A stretch of 64,000 nucleotides of DNA from Thermoanaerobaculia bacterium. GTDB taxonomy: Bacteria; Acidobacteriota; Thermoanaerobaculia; Multivoradales; SZUA-115. Of this stretch, positions 56,801 through 64,000 are shown piece after piece. Every line of letters begins with the position of its first letter. The stretch's first letter is position 1. The stretch covers positions 9,114-73,113 of the forward strand of contig JBIOYC010000074.1 in the NCBI GenBank assembly GCA_044869955.1, given 5' to 3'. The notes under the pieces are model-generated. The model was not told the DNA's origin. It saw nothing but the letters and a program-made list of their open reading frames with translations, and did not search any database. A program made the translations under genes and the position numbers.

Positions 56801-57171
56801 CGCTCGACCGTCGCCACAACACCGGCCGTGTCGCCCGGGTCCAGGCGGATGATGGTCACCGAGTCTGACAGCGCGTTGGTGACGTAGAGCCGCGACAGCT
56901 GGGGCACCCAAAGCAGGGAGTTGGGCTCCAGGCCGGTGCGTACGCGAGCGATGAAGCGGGAGCCGATCGGTAGGGTCTCCTCGGTGTGGTAGAGCTCGAC
57001 CGAGTTGTCCGGGGTGTTGACCACCGCCAGGAACTGCCTGCCTCCGACCGAGACGATCGCCAGGGGATCGACCTGTACGGTCTCGGTGTTGAAGTAGTCG
57101 GTCCGGCCCTGGGCCAGCAAGGCCGGGGCCCAGAGCAGGGCGAAGAACCACAGCCAGCGCTTTGCTCTCAT
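53869..57171 (-). CDS. Large secreted protein: YVTN-type beta-propeller repeats fused to a di-heme cytochrome c peroxidase (CCP/MauG-like) domain
   Basis: Signal peptide. LYVTNALSDSVTI and LYVLNRLDNSVTIL are YVTN repeats. Two CxxCH heme sites (CSSCH, CAHCH). GGAGG SD. Confidence 0.7.
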   Translation of the reverse strand: MRAKRWLWFFALLWAPALLAQGRTDYFNTETVQVDPLAIVSVGGRQFLAVVNTPDNSVELYHTEETLPIGSRFIARVRTGLEPNSLLWVPQLSRLYVTNALSDSVTIIRLDPGDTAGVVATVERTDWVGDEPVSLAYHPFEEDDGAGGTVLRHSLFLAHRDQDALGWRDALTLQPIIPGAFLFDATVPKGDIDQDGQNDLIALKSPRDVDVHCGKLFLLGEKGGNTQHFDFDLYSLPTAGGAAADLALPNSANFHMTWGPGDDLFIVGGEALNTTLRDEAVVAAAPTGFVKSTFTMVRGLCSGTPTFKVRDVNLEPALQPLVAPGTEVFGSFVAHKAALLPAMQPVPKTKALAQLTGVATYRGSSGPLKVFFTALSSDRVGVIEPDWSSSADSWLLRRIAMAPVPGSVSPVAGPRGLVIKGPDAGNPNDPGPRLYVLNRLDNSVTILNPVTETSVGQFALRHDPTPDHIKAGRTFLYSAEHGNGFNSCSSCHIDGRTDGLAWDLGDGVQVPIDPQLKDSLLMPSFWPADKEHMVTQSLQGLLNFDVGPEIQDLFTNAPYHWRGDREDFTQFKPAFVSLLAGTGITDDEMEGFREFINSVNYPPNPRQPLGRVFSGEPFVDETFPPPLPTGAQAGLTIYHLIQSDLLMSCAHCHALPEGSNNKITERVGGTNPADHAEELATQPIETAALRGLFQKEARLTRAGTVDPDGAPITGLEGLFHTGFILKDPLQTNTDFNRTSTINAFDRHFFGGVLCPPGLPFCPTLQQLNQFIHELDWGVGPLVGIAYTVDLANLADPLTTTAFGLAEDQTRKANNGLAVQAHLGATDRGFWFDPGASLFVEEPPGASLTRVQLTSLLGSTNDRLVLVVTPLGSERRVAAPSGQPSPSAPGAPSGVVLQPIATNTAYATVPKMTLNWQDPADNQHGGFFSHTVRLFQAGVVASAPAGESAFGTAVRWEAPRRLRVAANGILPGARLVLFSHDDPAAVTPPDLTKRPNQPGQVLLRSMSLPIHPTGDVDPVTGRPIWETAAELDPREYLRLILGGPFAPSVSAAFTDNGFLFQEVPLDPALAFDAANWNWHYVRVENPNGQRGDGGWQRLRLK

Positions 57172-57272
57172 ACCTCCTCCTCACGGAGACCTCGGCTCGA
57201 AGGGGCGCCGGTCTCTCGTATCGAAGAAAGCGGATCTCTTGGAGTCGGGAGATAACGCCCTTCCCGGGCGCG

Positions 57273-57294
57273 CAAGGTGCCAGCCGAATTGCGG
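57273..57294 (+). repeat. Exact 22-nt repeat CAAGGTGCCAGCCGAATTGCGG, copy 2
   Basis: Identical to 52575-52596. It lies about 100 nt upstream of the cytochrome c peroxidase fusion gene start. Confidence 0.6.
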
Positions 57295-57304
57295 GACGAG
57301 GAGG

Positions 57305-57763
57305 TCAGCTGGGTGGAGAGGCCGCCTTCGTGGCGCCGGGCGGGCCGCCGTAGGTGGCGCGGACCCGCTCGGACGTGGCCAGGTAGGCGAGCCACACTCC
57401 ACAGAGGGCCATCGAGCCGAGGGCCAGGGGTCGCGGCTGCCCCGCCACCTGCCAGGCGTAGAGGGAGTTGGCGACCAAGACCGCCAGGCTGAGCGCCCAC
57501 CAGGTCCAGGCATGGGTCGGGGCATTCCGGTTCCTCGCCACCAGCAGAAGGCAGGCGACGGCGCCGTAGAGGCCCAGAGCGCCGCCGCCGAGGGCGAAGG
57601 CCCTCACCGCCGCGGGTTGACCGCCGTCGAAAGCGACCGGCGTGCCCATGACCGAGATGAACGACGTGATGGCCATCATCACGGTCATCAGGGCGAGCAG
57701 GCCCCGCACTCCGACGTAGGCGTTGTGGGGGCGGGAAGCCTCGGTCATGGGTGGGATCTCCAA
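57305..57763 (-). CDS. Small integral membrane protein (four predicted TM helices), hypothetical
   Basis: Hydrophobic segments and high GC3. It lies immediately downstream of the PrdB/GrdB-family gene on the same strand. Confidence 0.45.
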   Translation of the reverse strand: MEIPPMTEASRPHNAYVGVRGLLALMTVMMAITSFISVMGTPVAFDGGQPAAVRAFALGGGALGLYGAVACLLLVARNRNAPTHAWTWWALSLAVLVANSLYAWQVAGQPRPLALGSMALCGVWLAYLATSERVRATYGGPPGATKAASPPS

Positions 57764-57773
57764 GCGATCGGGA

Positions 57774-58517
57774 TCAGTCGAGGGTGTAGTCGGCGAGCAC
57801 CGGACCAGGGCCGGCGGCCGTCTCGAGCAGGGTGAGGGCGGCCTCGAGCACCCGGTGCTGGACGGCGGCGTCGCCGGGTGCGCCGAGGGCGTAGCCGTGT
57901 GGGAAGGGTACGGCCAGCGCCCGGGGCGGACGGGTCTTCTCGGCGATCATGCGCAGCAAGATGAGGGTCACGGTGGCGATGCCCCGGCGTTCCAGCTCGG
58001 CTGCGACCAGACTCACGGTCTGGTTGCACGTCGGTCACACGGGCACCAGCAGGGCGACGTCCACGCCGTCGGCGACGAAGCCCGCTGCGGCCTCCGGCGC
58101 CGACTCACCGATCAGGCGGCCGGGGGCGGTGATCGAGCCCATGAAGGAGAGGTGGCGGCTGTTGAGCTCGCCCAGCCGCCCGCTCGCCACCAGCTCGCGG
58201 GCGCGGTCGAGGGGCAGGGCGAGGTTGCGGTCGGCCGCCAGCCCGCTGTGATCGAAGGCGTCGCTCCTGTGGTTCTCGACCAGGCTTTGGAGAACGGCGT
58301 CGTGGGGGATCCAGCGATAGCTCCAGTCGCCGCCTTTGATCGTTTCGTCGAATCGAGGTTGGTCGGGCAGGGACAGCCCTCCCGAGGTCACCAGCCCGAG
58401 GCGGCCTTCGGCCAGGGGTCGGGGCAGGGGAGCCCAGGCTGGGGGGTCGATCCGTCGCCACGGGTAGGTCGTCAGGAAAACTCGGTACTTCCAGGGCATC
58501 TCGTCGAGGCGCGCCAT
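57774..58517 (-). CDS. PrdB/GrdB-family (glycine/sarcosine/betaine/D-proline reductase protein B) protein; candidate selenoprotein with an in-frame TGA (Sec) near 58036
   Basis: The track gives two same-frame ORFs (58035..58517 and 57774..58016) separated only by one TGA and six sense codons (PTCNQT). The readthrough product ...GVDVALLVPV-U-PTCNQTVSLVAAELERRGIATV... resembles the Sec motif region of PrdB/GrdB as I recall it. A hairpin lies 11 nt 3' of the TGA. Confidence 0.55.
58011..58028 (-). promoter_or_regulatory. SECIS-like stem-loop (CCAG(G)AC-CGUGA-GUCUGG) 11 nt downstream of the in-frame UGA
   Basis: A 6-bp stem with a 5-nt loop, possibly with one bulged G, read directly. Its position matches the bacterial SECIS spacing rule. 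Exact coordinates are ±1. Confidence 0.4.
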
Positions 58518-58843
58518 GGCGCGATACTACCGTCGCGCCCCCGCCTTCACGTCGCCCCTCGAGGCTGGCCCAGCCGTGTTCGACGCCCCCCGACCTCGCC
58601 TCGCCTCCCTGCCTGCTCTCTCGGCTCGGGCGGTCAGCAGCCTCCCGTGGCGACCGGATCATCGGAAAAACAGAATGCAATTTATGCTAGACATAGGCAA
58701 GATTGACATTTGATGCTCTCATGGCTATCATCACGCCAAGCTCAAGGTACTTTCCGGATCTTGCGGGGAGCACACCGCCCCAGACGCACCATCGCTCGCT
58801 CCGGGAGACTGGTCTCCCGAGACATCGCCAGGAGGTTGAAGCC

Positions 58844-59626
58844 ATGCTTCGTCGCTCGCTGCTCCTACTCCTCGGTCTCGTCTTGCTCGCCCCTTCACTT
58901 CTCGCCGCGGACCCGGTCGTCTTCAGTGGGGTCGACGCCTTCCGCACCGTGGCCAGCCGGACCTTCACGGACTTGGCCAACGACCCCATCCCGGCCGGCT
59001 TCTTCTGCCCGGGCTCGGCCCCGTTCGCAGGCAAGATCCAGCTCAAGGGCGTGCCGCTCGCGGTCGAGCCCGCCAACGCGCTCCGAGGGGCGGACACCCT
59101 CTTCCTCCGCCTGGATGATGCCGCCTTCAACGAAGAGGGCATCGCCCAGACCCGCCTCCAGATGCAGGCTCTCTCGCTCGCCAGCGTCAAGCCCATCCGC
59201 ACCAGCTGCGGTGCTTACCGGGTGCGCGTCACTCTGGCGGAAGGTGACCAGCCCATCTCGCCCAAGCACCACATGACGATCGTGCGGGAGAGCGAGCGCG
59301 GTGGCTACTTCCTCTCCGAGTTCCAGATTCGCTACAAGCTGACCTTCGTGCCAGTGGCTGGTGGCCCGAACCTGGAGCTGGAGCGGACCTCCCGCTTCTC
59401 CGGCGGCGCCGACCACAAGTGGGCGTTCCTCAACGAGGATCAAGGCGCCTTCGCCGGCACCGTGAAGGTGGACACCAACGGCGATGGCAAGCCCGACACC
59501 AGCCTTGCCGGAGTCTCCAACTTTGCAGCGGGGCGCCAGGCCAGGCAGCTGCTTGGCGGTACCGGCACCAGCAGCTCCTTCCAAGAGCTCTCGACCGGCG
59601 ACTGTGCCACTCACGGCATCGAGTAG
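58844..59626 (+). CDS. Secreted hypothetical protein
   Basis: GGAGG SD 8 nt upstream. Signal peptide MLRRSLLLLLGLVLLAPSLLAA. The upstream 47 codons of the track ORF are rejected. Confidence 0.55.
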   Translation: MLRRSLLLLLGLVLLAPSLLAADPVVFSGVDAFRTVASRTFTDLANDPIPAGFFCPGSAPFAGKIQLKGVPLAVEPANALRGADTLFLRLDDAAFNEEGIAQTRLQMQALSLASVKPIRTSCGAYRVRVTLAEGDQPISPKHHMTIVRESERGGYFLSEFQIRYKLTFVPVAGGPNLELERTSRFSGGADHKWAFLNEDQGAFAGTVKVDTNGDGKPDTSLAGVSNFAAGRQARQLLGGTGTSSSFQELSTGDCATHGIE

Positions 59627-59683
59627 ATAGCTAGCTGCTGAAGGCCGCCTCCCCCGGAGCTGGCCTCCGGCGAGGCGGCCTCG

Positions 59684-62068
59684 CTAGCGGGCGAGGCGGC
59701 GCAGGGCCTCGTCCGCGTTGCGCCGGTAGGTCAGAGCGATCTCCTCCGCGCCGAGCCGTTGGGCTCGCTCGGAAGCTGCCAATGCGTAGTCGGCGGCTTG
59801 TCGGTGCTGCCCGGCGAGGCGGAAGTGATGGGCGAGCAGCTCGACGGGGCCCTCGACACCGCCGCCGCACCGGCTCTCGAGCGAATCGGCGACCTTCTTG
59901 TGCAGGAAGCGGACCCGCTCTTTCGGTAAGGACCGGTAGACCAGCGCGCGCAGGCTCGGGTGGGTGAATTCGAAGAGGGCGGTACGGGCTCCCTCGCCCG
60001 CCAGCGCCTTGAAGCGCTCCCGGCGGCTGTCCGCCCAGTAGCGAGGGAAAGGACGCACGAACCAGCGATCGGTCAGGATCTCGAGGGCGATCTCGACGAC
60101 CTCGCCGTGCTCTCCCTCGACCTCCTGGAGCACCTCCGGGGCGAAGACCTGCCCGACCACCGCCGCGAGCGAGAGCAGGCGACGAGAGGTGGGTGGGAGG
60201 CTCCGGAGGCGTTCACGGACGACCTCGTCGAGCGACAGCCCGGCGTAACGGTCGAGGTCCTTGGGATCGCCGGCGACCGACCATCTTCGATCAGCCAGCG
60301 GAGTCAGGAGCTGCTCGTCGGCGAGCAGGTTGACCAGCTCCGCGGCCTTGTGCGGGTGCCCTCCCGAGCCTTGGTGGAGCGCCGTCGCGAAGGCCGGGTG
60401 CCGTTCCCCCAGGAGGGTCTCGGCCACGTGCTCGAGGGACTCTCGGTCGAGGGCCCCGAGCTCGATCGACGAGACGCGCTGGCGCCCGACCTGGGCGCTG
60501 AGGCGGCGCAGGGGATGGCCCCGCGGTAGGGGCTCGGCCCGGTAGGTGCCGACGATCCAACAGGGCAGCTCGGCCACGGTCCGCGGCAGCAGCTCGAGCA
60601 GCTGGAGGGTGGCGGAGTCTGCGGCTTGGAGGTCGTCCAGGAAGAGGATCACGGGGCGCACCGGCCGGTCCTTGCCACCCCGCTGGCCCAGGGAGCCGAG
60701 CACCCGGGAGAGCGCCAGGGCCAACGTTTCGGGAAGGGCTTCGGGCCGTTCGCGCTCGAGGCGGGTCTGGAGCCGAGGGTCGACCGCCGCCAGCTCGGTG
60801 ACCAGCGGCGCCAGGATCTGCAAGGCCTTCTGTCCCGAGGCGACGAGGATCTGGTCGGCGGTGTCGGGATCCGTGGCGACGGCGTTTCCGAGGGCCTCGG
60901 CCAGGGGGCGATAGGGCACTGGCGGATCTCCCTCGAAGCCGGCGCCGAGCAGCACCGTGGCCGGAGTGCCGGAGGTGGCGCCATCGAGGAAGGTGCGCAC
61001 CAGACGAGTCTTGCCGATACCCGACGGGCCCTCGACCAAGGTCAGACGCCCGGCTCCCCGTTGCACGGCGCTCCAGGCTGCAGCGAGCTGCGCCATCGCC
61101 GCCTCGCGGCCGACGAAAGGCACCACGGGCCCCCTCGATTGCCCATCCCGGGCGGCGACCTGGGCGGGCAGCTCCTCGCTCTCGATCTGGCGGGCGAGGG
61201 CCTGGGTCTCCTCGGCAGGGTCCACGCCGAGGTCTCGTCGCAGGTGGCGCTGCAGCTCCTGGTAGTGGCCGAGAGCCCGGCTACGCCGGCCCGACAGGGC
61301 GTAGAGCTGCATCAGGTTCCGATGGGCTTCCTCCGCGAAGGAGTCGATCCTCAACAGCTGCCTCGCGCACTGCATGCCGACGGCATAGCTGCCGGTCTCC
61401 AGGTGATGGCCGACGAGTCGCCTCAGGGCGGCGAGAGCGTCCTCTTTGAGCCTCTCCTGCTCGGCCATCAGCCATTCCTCGAAGTCGGGGCTCTCGCGCA
61501 GATAGAAGCCGGCCAAGAGGTCGCCGCGATAGAGCTGCGCCGCGCGGGAGAGCTGGGCCGGCTCGATCGAGCCGTCTTCCCGCTGCCCTCGCGAGACCGC
61601 CTCGCCGAAGGCCCTGACGTCCACCCAGATGGTGCTGCCAGAAGCGAGGCCGAGGGTGCTGCGGGTCGCCTCGATGGGGATATCTCCGGCGTCCGCCAGG
61701 GCGAAGGCCCGACGCAGGCCGTAGAGGGCCTGCCGGAGATTGTGGCGGGCGGTGGTCTCCGTCACTTCGGGCCAGAGCAGGCTCGCCACCATCTCACGAT
61801 CGAGGACTCGATCCGGGTGGCAGGCGAGGTAGGCGATCAGCGCCCGAGCGATGGTCGAGTCGAGCGCCTCCATCACCGCCCCGCGGCAACGCAGCTCGAA
61901 GCCGCCGAGCAGGCGGATCTCGATCGACGCCGACCCGCCGGCCAGGAGAGGGGCGGAGCTCTGAGTGGAGGGCCGGTTCTTCAAGCGTTGTTTATATGGA
62001 CATGGATGGTGGCCTGGATGACGGACGATTGACGCTCGATGTCGAGAATACTCCCATCGAGCTGACAA
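59684..62068 (-). CDS. SARP/AfsR-family regulator (OmpR-type wHTH, BTAD, NB-ARC-like P-loop ATPase, C-terminal TPR)
   Basis: IEIRLLGGFELR wHTH, a BTAD block (LYRGDLLAGFYL), the P-loop GPSGIGKTRLV, and C-terminal helical repeats. The exact start is uncertain. Confidence 0.75.
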   Translation of the reverse strand: MSARWEYSRHRASIVRHPGHHPCPYKQRLKNRPSTQSSAPLLAGGSASIEIRLLGGFELRCRGAVMEALDSTIARALIAYLACHPDRVLDREMVASLLWPEVTETTARHNLRQALYGLRRAFALADAGDIPIEATRSTLGLASGSTIWVDVRAFGEAVSRGQREDGSIEPAQLSRAAQLYRGDLLAGFYLRESPDFEEWLMAEQERLKEDALAALRRLVGHHLETGSYAVGMQCARQLLRIDSFAEEAHRNLMQLYALSGRRSRALGHYQELQRHLRRDLGVDPAEETQALARQIESEELPAQVAARDGQSRGPVVPFVGREAAMAQLAAAWSAVQRGAGRLTLVEGPSGIGKTRLVRTFLDGATSGTPATVLLGAGFEGDPPVPYRPLAEALGNAVATDPDTADQILVASGQKALQILAPLVTELAAVDPRLQTRLERERPEALPETLALALSRVLGSLGQRGGKDRPVRPVILFLDDLQAADSATLQLLELLPRTVAELPCWIVGTYRAEPLPRGHPLRRLSAQVGRQRVSSIELGALDRESLEHVAETLLGERHPAFATALHQGSGGHPHKAAELVNLLADEQLLTPLADRRWSVAGDPKDLDRYAGLSLDEVVRERLRSLPPTSRRLLSLAAVVGQVFAPEVLQEVEGEHGEVVEIALEILTDRWFVRPFPRYWADSRRERFKALAGEGARTALFEFTHPSLRALVYRSLPKERVRFLHKKVADSLESRCGGGVEGPVELLAHHFRLAGQHRQAADYALAASERAQRLGAEEIALTYRRNADEALRRLAR

Positions 62069-62124
62069 TCCGGAGCGGGGGGAGGGGGTTTGGATCGGAT
62101 GAAACCGATGGAAGGATCGAACTC

Positions 62125-63129
62125 ATGATGCGAAAGACCATCCTGGCGCTGGCTCTGTCCTCTGCTCTCGGAGTCGCGACGACCCAGTTGCTCGCCGTGG
62201 ACAAGGCGGTGGAGCCCGGCCTGTCCTACCACACCTTCATCGAGACCAACGGCACCCTCAGCGGACGCATCTGGTTCGCCATCTGCTGCGATTGCTCCGG
62301 CACGGGTGACGAAACGTCTCCGTTTTCGATCGGCGACGACGATGACGATGGCGGCTGCGGTGGGAGCTGCTGCAACTGCCCGCCGGTGGAAGACGAGACG
62401 TCCCCGATCCGGATGGACGAGCGTACCGGTGGCCAGCACGGCGATGATGATGACGACGACGATGATGATGACGATGGCGGTGCTTGCGACGGCAGCGGCT
62501 CGCTGGACGTCGGCGGCGTGACCGTGGACCTGTTCGACGGGGATGGCAACCTCGTCGACTCCCAGGTGAGCGCTCAGGACGGCAGCTACTCCTTCTCGGA
62601 CCTGGCCGAGGGCAGCTATCGAGTGCAGGTGGCCGATCTGACCTTGCCGTCCGGCGTGCGCCCGGTCTTCGACGTCGACGGCACGACGACGCAGCACCGG
62701 GCGGTGGTCCAGCTCGACAGCGGCGAGAATCGCTCGGGAGTGGATTTCGGCTACGGCGGGTGCGCGCCGGGCACCGGCACTCTCGGCTACTGGAAGAACC
62801 ACCCGGACGCCTGGCCGGAGGAGCAGATCACCGTCGGCGGGGTGACCTACGGCAAGGACGAGGCGATCGCCATCCTGCGCACCCCGAGCCGGGGCGACAA
62901 GACCTACGACCTGTTCAAGCAGCTGGTGGCGGCGCAGCTCAACGTGCAGATCGGCAACCCGAGCAGCTGCGTCACGGTCACGATCGCCGAGGCGGACGCC
63001 TGGCTCGTCACCTACCCGCTGGGCAGCCGGGTCCGGAGCTCGAGCTCGGCCTGGGCCACCGGTGCCCCCCTGCACGCGACCCTGGACGACTACAACAACG
63101 GCGAGCTCTGCGCGCCGCATCGCGGCTGA
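62125..63129 (+). CDS. Secreted Cys- and Asp-rich protein with a poly-Asp tract and a C-terminal SdrD-B/Cna-B-like beta-sandwich domain
   Basis: GAAGGA SD. Signal peptide. The sequences CCDCSGTGDE, GGCGGSCCNC and an 11-residue poly-Asp run. The C-terminal domain contains VTVDLFDGDGNLVDSQVSAQDGSYSFSDLAEGSYRVQV. Confidence 0.65.
   Translation: MMRKTILALALSSALGVATTQLLAVDKAVEPGLSYHTFIETNGTLSGRIWFAICCDCSGTGDETSPFSIGDDDDDGGCGGSCCNCPPVEDETSPIRMDERTGGQHGDDDDDDDDDDDGGACDGSGSLDVGGVTVDLFDGDGNLVDSQVSAQDGSYSFSDLAEGSYRVQVADLTLPSGVRPVFDVDGTTTQHRAVVQLDSGENRSGVDFGYGGCAPGTGTLGYWKNHPDAWPEEQITVGGVTYGKDEAIAILRTPSRGDKTYDLFKQLVAAQLNVQIGNPSSCVTVTIAEADAWLVTYPLGSRVRSSSSAWATGAPLHATLDDYNNGELCAPHRG
62310..62480 (+). repeat. 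Low-complexity GAC/GAT (poly-Asp/Gly) coding tract
   Basis: Runs of gacgacgatgatgatgacgat read directly. It is part of the CDS above. Confidence 0.6.
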
Positions 63130-63199
63130 GGTTTGCGCTAACCTGTGGAGGAGTCGGCCCCGGCGCCGGCTCCTCCCTCGCTCTTGGGGGAGGCGCGAA

Positions 63200-63481
63200 A
63201 GGCGGGTCCTCCTGAACGAGATCGAGATTGCCCCCGGCGTCCTGTACCGCGACCTCGGGGGCGAGGCGGTCCTGCTCGAGCCCAGGAGCGGTCGCTACTT
63301 CGGCCTCGACGAGGTGGGAACGCGGATCTGGTCCCTGATCGTCGAGCACCTTCGGATCGAGCCGGTGGTCGACGCCCTGATCGCCGAGTACGAGGCTCCA
63401 CCGGATCGACTGCGACAGGACGTCCTCGCGTTCGTCGAGACTCTCCGTGAGCACGGCCTGCTCGAGAACCCGCGTGCCTGA
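63200..63481 (+). CDS. PqqD-like RiPP recognition element protein (lasso-peptide B1-like); start codon not resolved
   Basis: The 91 aa from VLLNEIEIAPGVLYRDLGGEAVLLEPRSGRYFGLDEVGTRIW...LAFVETLREHGLL have the PqqD/RRE pattern. No canonical start was found; the N-terminal 45 aa of the track ORF overlap the upstream gene and are rejected. Confidence 0.55.
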   Translation, partial: RRVLLNEIEIAPGVLYRDLGGEAVLLEPRSGRYFGLDEVGTRIWSLIVEHLRIEPVVDALIAEYEAPPDRLRQDVLAFVETLREHGLLENPRA

Positions 63482-63926
63482 GCTACCCCGGCTGGTCCGG
63501 TGGTCCGGTCTGCTGCTGCGCCGAGGACTGACGCTAGCCCGCCTCTGGCGGCTCCTGGGAGCCGCTTCCGAGCGCCTCGCCCGTCTGCCTCTCGACCAGG
63601 CCGAAGCCGAGCTGGCGGCCGGCTCTGCCGTCCGCCTCGGCGAGGTCTCACCCGACGAGCTGGCGCGGCTGCTGCGGGTCGCGGGGAGGCTCCGGCGCCA
63701 AGCCGGAACCTGTCTGCCACGAGCCCTCTGCTTGAAGCTGCTGCTCGAGCGGCAGGGGAGGCGGCCCGAGCTGCGGCTCGGGGTGCGCCGGGCCTCCGAC
63801 CGGCTCGAGGCGCACGCCTGGGTAGAGCTCGGGGGGCGGCCGGTCGGCGAGGCTGCCGACCTGCTCGAGCGGTTCAGCCCCCTGGAGAGCCCCGCTGCCT
63901 GGGCGGCAGCCCTGAGCGCGAAGTAG
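63447..63926 (+). CDS. Transglutaminase-like cysteine protease (lasso-peptide leader peptidase B2-like)
   Basis: Cys in CLPRALCLKLLL, and the region ELRLGVR...LEAHAWVE is typical of the Transglut_core3/McjB C-terminal domain. GTG start overlaps B1 by 35 nt. Confidence 0.6.
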   Translation: MSTACSRTRVPELPRLVRWSGLLLRRGLTLARLWRLLGAASERLARLPLDQAEAELAAGSAVRLGEVSPDELARLLRVAGRLRRQAGTCLPRALCLKLLLERQGRRPELRLGVRRASDRLEAHAWVELGGRPVGEAADLLERFSPLESPAAWAAALSAK

Positions 63927-63942
63927 CGAGGCCCTTTCAGGC

Positions 63943-63971
63943 TTGACAGGCCTGGCGAGCCCGGCTATCTT
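63943..63971 (+). promoter_or_regulatory. Sigma70-like promoter TTGACA-N17-TATCTT
   Basis: Hexamers read directly. They lie immediately upstream of the CIRCE element. Confidence 0.5.
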
Positions 63972-63972
63972 G

Positions 63973-63999
63973 TTAGCACTCGTCGGTCATGAGTGCTAA
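63973..63999 (+). promoter_or_regulatory. CIRCE operator (HrcA binding site), a perfect TTAGCACTC-N9-GAGTGCTAA
   Basis: An exact match to the CIRCE consensus. The regulated heat-shock gene (groES/groEL or hrcA-grpE type) lies beyond the window end. Confidence 0.85.
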
Positions 64000-64000
64000 C

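Follow-up and report, generated by a model that had tools for sequence, protein, structure and literature searches.

The 64-kb stretch of Thermoanaerobaculia DNA analysed here (the window) carries close to its end two adjacent genes, B1 and B2, that are predicted to encode the leader-binding protein and the leader peptidase of lasso-peptide biosynthesis. We show by homology and synteny that the region 59684–63926, considered up to the CIRCE operator at 63999, represents the regulator/secreted-protein/B1/B2 half of a lasso-peptide cluster and that it abuts groESL. The genes of the other half, which encode a CxxCxxCC protein, the cyclase (C), the precursor (A) and an HPr-kinase-like protein (K), are not found anywhere in the 64 kb. 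The locus alone cannot make a lasso peptide. On balance, we lean towards the reading that B1 and B2 would still function together with a precursor and a cyclase encoded at a non-contiguous site. The system is thus of an ordinary kind, in an unusual arrangement.

The B1–B2 pair

B2 matches the Pfam model Transglut_core3 (PF13471) with an E value of 6.3e-22 and passes the NCBIfam model NF033537 for 'lasso peptide biosynthesis B2' (70.5 bits, cut-off 33). Cys80 in the motif CLPRAL and His114 in AHAWVE are invariant across homologues, and the Asp follows in an EAADL motif. Counting as family-conserved those residues that are kept in at least 80% of family members, B2 retains 22 of 26, the catalytic Cys and His included. 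B1 lies within the open reading frame (ORF) 63062–63481, of which residues 68–134 match Pfam PqqD (PF05402) with an E value of 4.8e-20 and 72 bits. Its best NCBIfam match, lasso_PqqD_Bac, reaches 60.3 bits, under the curated cut-off of 80. B1 is not PqqD proper (TIGR03859, 24.8 bits versus a cut-off of 46), and pqq-family matches are absent among the neighbouring genes called on L001 and on L002, the closest relative of the window. It retains 18 of 19 family-conserved residues, and these are the residues of canonical lasso RREs. The nearest homologues of B1 (52–58% identity) sit in complete lasso clusters, as do those of B2, which supports the assignment of the pair to a split-B lasso module.

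Split-B lasso clusters with a discrete B1 (RRE) and B2 (leader peptidase) are known from the fusilassin/fuscanodin and lariatin types. As in these, a PqqD-like RRE is followed in the window by an overlapping gene for a transglutaminase-fold Cys protease that is recognized by the lasso B2 model, and the precursors that accompany its homologues carry a YxxPxL...T-x leader. Unlike these, the pair has no contiguous cyclase or precursor, its B1 lacks a canonical start codon, and it is placed between a secreted-protein gene and groESL.

The start of B2 is more likely the GTG at 63474, which overlaps the B1 stop by 8 nucleotides (nt), than a codon at 63447. The gene is called in this way on an independent Logan contig, the sole contig with an identical B2, which ends at about 64005, five bases past the window. 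We rejected the start at 63447 because the resulting 159-residue form is not on record and the 150-residue form is. The overlap suggests that translation of B2 probably depends on B1.

For B1, there is no ATG in 63121–63240 and no in-frame ATG, GTG or TTG past the upstream stop. The same sequence is found in L003, a second and independent assembly, so that a sequencing error does not account for the missing start. Three non-canonical codons come into consideration: CTG 63212, which is conserved and has GAAAGG 10–15 nt upstream, ATC 63221 and ATT 63227. By sequence, the CTG is the best candidate. In L002, a GTG aligns with a GTC of the window. The idea that the B1 frame is broken upstream of 'VLL' proved wrong: the frame is open in both genomes, and only the encoded peptide is unconserved. 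An earlier note on this DNA had read the two genes as a PqqD/RRE-like B1 without recognizable start codon or any ATG in this interval, and a Transglut_core3 protease B2 at 63447–63926, together forming a split-B lasso module. This holds for the identity of both proteins, the module and the missing B1 start; the coordinates of B1 are adjusted (Table 1) and the start of B2 is moved.

Selection was computed between the window and L002, a 246-kb contig from a Thermoanaerobaculia metagenome-assembled genome (MAG) of which a 20-kb locus syntenic with the window was compared. Identity between the two is 63% for B2, 74–76% for B1, 66–67% for the regulator and 56–64% for the secreted protein, varying with the alignment method. 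At a synonymous divergence (dS) of 0.5–0.9, the counts for B1 are 32 nonsynonymous changes at 200.8 sites and 27 synonymous changes at 72.2 sites, and those for B2 are 72.7 at 301.2 and 67.3 at 127.8. The ratios of nonsynonymous to synonymous divergence (dN/dS) are 0.35 (p = 4e-4, Fisher test) and 0.32 (p = 2e-8), respectively, in line with the neighbouring genes (0.25–0.37), and neither gene contains a stop or a frameshift in the two genomes. These substitution patterns indicate purifying selection on both genes, with dN/dS about 0.33. Given that the loss of the B1 start codon is common to the window and L002, selection acted after that loss. As both genes are intact and selectively constrained, the pair most probably remains in use.

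Gene order in the lasso-cluster family

An alignment-based scan with B2 of the GTDB representative genomes, a set that does not include the source genome, gave 80 loci, 79 besides L002. An asparagine-synthetase-type cyclase is present in the examined flank of 65 of these 79, so that a B2 protein of this type normally belongs to a complete lasso cluster. The family recurs in Thermoanaerobaculia (Acidobacteriota) and in some other phyla, and our literature searches found no papers on lasso peptides in Thermoanaerobaculia or on orphan leader peptidases. Its complete order is (regulator), secreted protein with SdrD_B and 'GYWKNH' domains, B1, B2, CxxCxxCC protein, cyclase, precursor and HPr-kinase-like gene; the architecture of the family can be followed in L088, L036, L025, L047 and L168–L172. 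Precursors have 50–60 residues and are encoded after the cyclase, with a leader of the form ...KPYxxPxLxEWGSIxxLT-x and a core that begins with G, as in the canonical example ..YSPPELQEWGSIQELTQ|GGVVFGTNDFPKKGGSRQT.

Two loci of the scan are of particular note. In the Thermoanaerobaculia locus L036, a full-length homologue of the regulator and a giant SdrD_B protein accompany B1-B2-C-A. In L047 (Chloroflexota), an SdrD_B protein whose C-terminal domain is 52% identical to that of the window directly precedes B1-B2-A-C-kinase. The precursor gene is followed by an HPr-kinase/ScmC-like gene in the complete relatives L025, L047, L089, L168 and L170. Lasso clusters with an HPr-kinase-like tailoring enzyme are known as the paeninodin type. 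The window matches these relatives in its regulator and secreted-protein neighbours and, unlike them, has no kinase gene detectable by tblastn.

Gene order is fluid in this family, and B2 is often non-contiguous with the other genes. In L172, B1 is followed by C and there is no B2 within 8 kb. B1 likewise directly precedes C in L153, L092 and L144 with no B2 nearby, and the secreted-protein gene directly precedes C in L097 and L151. In Thermoanaerobaculia, lasso clusters lie next to groESL in three arrangements. In the first, groESL is found beside the regulator: L168 (1–11085) has groEL and groES on the minus strand, then regulator, secreted protein, B1, B2, CxxCxxCC protein, C, A and kinase. 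In the second, groESL and B2 are inverted after the kinase: L170/L171 (1–14717) has the regulator on the minus strand, then secreted protein, B1, C, A, kinase and a 202-residue gene, then groEL, groES and B2 on the minus strand. Here B2 adjoins groES on its own, on the strand opposite to B1-C-A-K. Those genes lie about 2–6.5 kb away, with the cyclase gene ending about 4.3 kb from B2 and B1 at a distance of about 6.3 kb. In the third, B1-B2 is followed by groESL, as in L002 (8629–12574).

As a side observation, L089 (6444–10186) and L097 (2884–6531) each encode two asparagine-synthetase-like cyclase paralogues, of which one immediately follows the secreted-protein gene and the other comes behind the precursor. 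Cyclase-less B modules recur: in about ten further genomes, spread over several phyla, B2 is present, in most cases along with B1, and no cyclase is found within 10 kb (L010, L016, L030, L043, L052, L059, L077 and L086 among them). One of these, L010 (8454–10288), even carries a precursor-like ORF together with a kinase-like gene, and still lacks a cyclase. Incomplete contexts are not new in themselves, since the RRE-Finder survey placed about 4,000 of about 8,000 lasso-type discrete RREs in complete contexts with peptidase and cyclase (PMC7470986). The window resembles the incomplete cases of that survey in having a lasso-like RRE without a neighbouring cyclase. It differs from them in having a leader peptidase, coupled to the RRE, and in that homology and synteny link the pair to complete clusters within the same bacterial class.

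The groESL junction and the missing genes

Directly after B2, the window contains a sigma-70-type promoter, TTGACA-17-TATCTT, and between this promoter and the expected groES a perfect CIRCE element, TTAGCACTC-N9-GAGTGCTAA. Promoter and CIRCE mark the start of the next, unrelated operon. The same promoter and CIRCE, followed by groES and groEL, are found after B2 in L002, and unrelated genes follow. In L170, the B2 stop is directly followed by TTGACA-17-TATGCT, CIRCE and groES, and in L171 groESL likewise lies beside B2. The junction of B2 stop, promoter, CIRCE and groES is common to the window, L002 and L170 and coexists in the latter with a full gene set. We conclude that it is old and not a deletion scar.

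The missing genes were searched for by homology and by motif. With five cyclases as queries, tblastn gave no match of E < 0.1 in the window or in the 20-kb L002 locus. Queries with kinases, with the CxxCxxCC protein and with seven precursors of related loci likewise had no match in either sequence. A six-frame search for the leader motif was empty for the window and recovered the positive control L088; in L002 it returned two relaxed-motif matches only, both in non-coding frames. The L002 gene table lists no PF00733 gene within about 10 kb on either side.

The earlier note had correctly seen the promoter and CIRCE signals at 63943–63999 and had nevertheless expected cyclase and precursor to follow past 64000. 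With the groESL promoter and CIRCE directly after B2, a simple continuation at this point is excluded; groESL follows B2 in two relatives with the same junction, and in L002 neither C nor A is encoded in the roughly 10 kb downstream. The fallbacks offered there, a cluster that ends at CIRCE or an orphan B1–B2 pair, come nearer to the truth. As grounds for giving up its proposal, that note had named a lack of cyclase and precursor within about 10 kb together with pseudogenised B1 and B2 in relatives. The former is what we find in L002; the latter is not, as both genes are intact.

How a B1–B2 pair with distant partners would work can be outlined from what is established for the family. B1 would bind the YxxPxL...T leader of a precursor and present it to B2, whose Cys-His-Asp triad would cut after Thr-x. 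The cyclase would then adenylate Asp or Glu at position 7–9 and close the ring. Cyclase and precursor would be encoded either past groESL on the other strand or unlinked in the genome.

Several observations weigh against a pair that is still in use with distant partners. At the position of the ancestral B1 ATG, which is retained in L168, L170 and L172, the window has CGG (63203) and L002 has GCG. In these three relatives a T-tract terminator and a TATAAT-like box stand upstream of the ATG, and the box of L170 and L172 is lost in the window. Translation of B2 seems to be coupled to B1, so that expression may be low or absent. The 8 kb past groEL in L002 contain unrelated, partly mobile-looking genes (AAA_14/DUF4143, HTH, Fic/MazE) and no C, A or K, nor remnants of them. 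Finally, none of the five Thermoanaerobaculia cyclases that we looked up from NCBI MAGs, among the 120 of 395 matches listed and with MAGs being incomplete, comes from the assembly of L002, which is a weak negative.

Where the partners would lie is a separate question. The earlier expectation of a downstream continuation can be kept in modified form, with kinase, precursor and cyclase encoded by the minus strand and no more than about 10 kb behind groEL. L170/L171 have the identical B2–groESL junction with B1-C-A-K nearby, a full gene set around groESL, and C and A could therefore lie past groESL here as well. A single inversion with breakpoints between B1 and B2 and after C would turn the L170 order into that of the window and bring K, A and C behind groEL; this model is derived from synteny. 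Against it stands L002, which is otherwise syntenic and has none of these genes within 8 kb after groEL, although its region past groEL looks remodelled (ATPase, HTH, toxin–antitoxin) and the absence may be a private loss. We regard such a continuation as doubtful. Also when B1 and B2 are taken as functional, a position of C and A within about 10 kb past groESL has only a modest chance, and the rest falls to an unlinked site elsewhere.

A decaying relic, in which cyclase and precursor have been lost and B1 and B2 are unexpressed and turning into pseudogenes, would fit a B1 without ATG, GTG or TTG start that the gene caller skipped on the Logan contig. It would also fit the roughly 30 nt between hairpin and B1, which hold no recognizable promoter and follow a terminator-like hairpin, and the about half of lasso-type discrete RRE matches that have no co-occurring peptidase and cyclase (PMC7470986). 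A relic is difficult to reconcile with two ORFs that stayed intact across a dS of 0.5–0.9 at a dN/dS significantly below 1, with the retention of catalytic and family-conserved residues, and with selection that postdates the shared loss of the start codon. We consider it unlikely.

Lower still we place a combined claim, which we judge very unlikely. In this claim, selection would keep B1 and B2 without a cyclase in the genome, from a non-canonical start (CUG, AUC or AUU), for stand-alone leader removal on a non-lasso substrate, and the SdrD_B/'GYWKNH' proteins would be partners of lasso peptides, for example as extracellular binder, receptor or scaffold.

A repurposed pair, with B1 and B2 as a stand-alone leader-recognition and protease module that turns another substrate into a linear peptide or processed protein, is highly improbable: purifying selection without a nearby C or A, cyclase-less B1–B2 pairs amid housekeeping genes in unrelated phyla (L016, L030, L043) and the location of three of the four B2 departures from the family consensus in the N-terminal half would suit it, but no candidate substrate gene is conserved beside the pair, the conserved residues of B1 are those of canonical lasso RREs, and we know of no precedent.

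The comparison of this locus with its relatives has consequences for genome mining. Mining would flag this locus as a lasso fragment and then discard it or extend it wrongly. In Thermoanaerobaculia, scattering of lasso genes around groESL is routine, and kilobases can separate B2 from B1-C-A. Boundary rules that require contiguous B and C therefore miss or mis-score the family. Three leads emerge in addition. The first is the secreted 'GYWKNH...LDDYNNGxLC' domain, which is uncharacterised, has a confident fold prediction and repeatedly takes the first gene position in a family of lasso clusters. The second is a set of new precursors from Acidobacteriota that have not been cultured, and the third is a gene under selection, B1, that has no canonical start codon at all. 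None of the three overturns the current understanding of lasso biosynthesis.

Secreted protein, spacer and regulator

Table 1. Features of the locus, with positions counted in the window
Feature	Position	Strand	Description and basis
SARP-like regulator (BTAD + AAA_16/STAND ATPase)	59684–61984	−	called gene 766 aa; ORF to 62068, 794 aa; Pfam
Secreted protein	62125–63129	+	334 aa; signal peptide, Cys/Asp-rich stretch, one SdrD_B, C-terminal domain; Pfam SdrD_B 39 bits
C-terminal 'GYWKNHPxAWP...LDDYNNGxLC' domain	62764–63126	+	homologue search
GC-rich hairpin	63147–63176	+	12-bp stem, 6-nt loop (GGAGGAGTCGGC-CCCGGC-GCCGGCTCCTCC); directly 3' of secreted-protein gene; RNA fold
B1, discrete PqqD/RRE leader-binding protein	63206/63212–63481	+	Pfam and NCBIfam
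B2, transglutaminase-fold cysteine protease (lasso leader peptidase)	63474–63926	+	150 aa; GTG start; gene call and profiles
groESL promoter and perfect CIRCE operator	promoter 63943–63971; CIRCE 63973–63999	+	TTGACA-17-TATCTT; promoter scan, sequence

The earlier description of a Cys/Asp-rich secreted protein beside a divergent 794-residue SARP/AfsR-type regulator agrees with our annotation in the presence of both genes; the called regulator gene is somewhat shorter, and its product is here termed SARP-like (Table 1). The secreted protein has its Cys/Asp-rich stretch in the N-terminal half, which includes an uninterrupted series of about 11 Asp codons and several motifs of the CC/CxC type (62400–62480, plus strand). 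The window protein has a single SdrD_B repeat, versus many repeats in the homologues that head complete clusters (670 to more than 3,600 residues). Its C-terminal 'GYWKNH' domain has no match in Pfam and NCBIfam scans. The domain has more than 115 homologue clusters, is found in both bacteria and archaea and for the most part forms a secreted protein of about 160 residues by itself. The AlphaFold2 model is compact, with a predicted local distance difference test score (pLDDT) of 97 and a helical tail, and the best match of a PDB fold search is no better than E = 2.7.

Metagenome contigs were searched with this domain (loci L088–L167), and counts were made on the 63 loci that extend for 300 nt or more downstream. 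In 13 of them (about 20%), a lasso gene (B1, B2 or cyclase) follows the 'GYWKNH' gene, at a distance of 14–250 nt in ten and of 0.7–3.3 kb in L147, L149 and L159. Six of the best seven matches belong to these 13 loci. The chance expectation of such adjacency, estimated from general knowledge of lasso-cluster frequency, is far below one. The secreted protein is a recurrent accessory first gene of the lasso-cluster family and not the precursor; to our knowledge, a large SdrD_B/'GYWKNH' secreted protein in first position has not been described for lasso clusters. We also considered the secreted protein as a giant precursor, as its tail ..WATG|APLHATLDDYNNG.. offers T at −2, G/A/S at position 1 and D at position 8. 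This was rejected because the tail is a helix of the compact domain, because stand-alone homologues from bacteria and archaea share it, and because complete clusters have separate canonical precursors after the cyclase.

The hairpin behind the secreted-protein gene is terminator-like, yet without a clear T-tract. The hairpin of L002 (9677–9706) has an identical stem, a different loop and a T-tract behind it, and equivalent hairpins with T-tracts stand 3' of the homologous gene in L088, L144, L153, L047, L170 and L172. The 5' arm contains a perfect Shine–Dalgarno-like GGAGGAG with no start codon behind it. Three further readings of this spacer were rejected. A cis-regulatory RNA finds no Rfam match there at E ≤ 1; the sole Rfam match in 57000–64000, Chloroflexi-1, lies inside B2 and is at chance level (22.9 bits versus a gathering score of 80 bits). 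A small ORF from GTG 63145 as precursor stops after six codons in L002. A read-through fusion of secreted protein and B1 fails since the secreted-protein TGA is in the B1 frame in L002 but not in the window.

The regulator is transcribed divergently from the secreted-protein gene. Its Pfam matches are BTAD (84 bits) and AAA_16 (87 bits). For the OmpR-type winged-helix domain that SARP/AfsR-type regulators carry N-terminally beside BTAD, often together with a STAND ATPase, Trans_reg_C reaches 18.9 bits versus a cut-off of 26.2. It falls outside the NCBIfam models for BagI/FevR (29.6 vs 500) and TOMM kinase/cyclase (107 vs 706). Full-length homologues stand beside related lasso clusters in L036 (37% identity), L089 (41%) and L168 (42%), and in L002 (66%). 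The intergenic region between regulator and secreted-protein gene (61985–62124 in the window, 8475–8628 in L002) shares the conserved blocks CATGGACAT, GGATGACG, TTGACGCT and GACAATCCGGAGCGGGGGGAGGGGG, and in L002 a 15-nt insertion gives rise to a tandem CTCTGGAGAATAC direct repeat. These blocks and repeats are possible candidates for SARP-binding repeats.

Elsewhere in the window, a frame similar to GRDB, of the glycine/sarcosine/betaine reductase B family, extends over 57774–58517 on the minus strand and contains one in-frame TGA at 58035–58037. Gene callers split the frame into genes of 160 and 80 residues, both in the window and in L002. The TGA lies within LLVPV-TGA-PTCNQ, a UxxC-type motif, and probably encodes selenocysteine instead of terminating translation.

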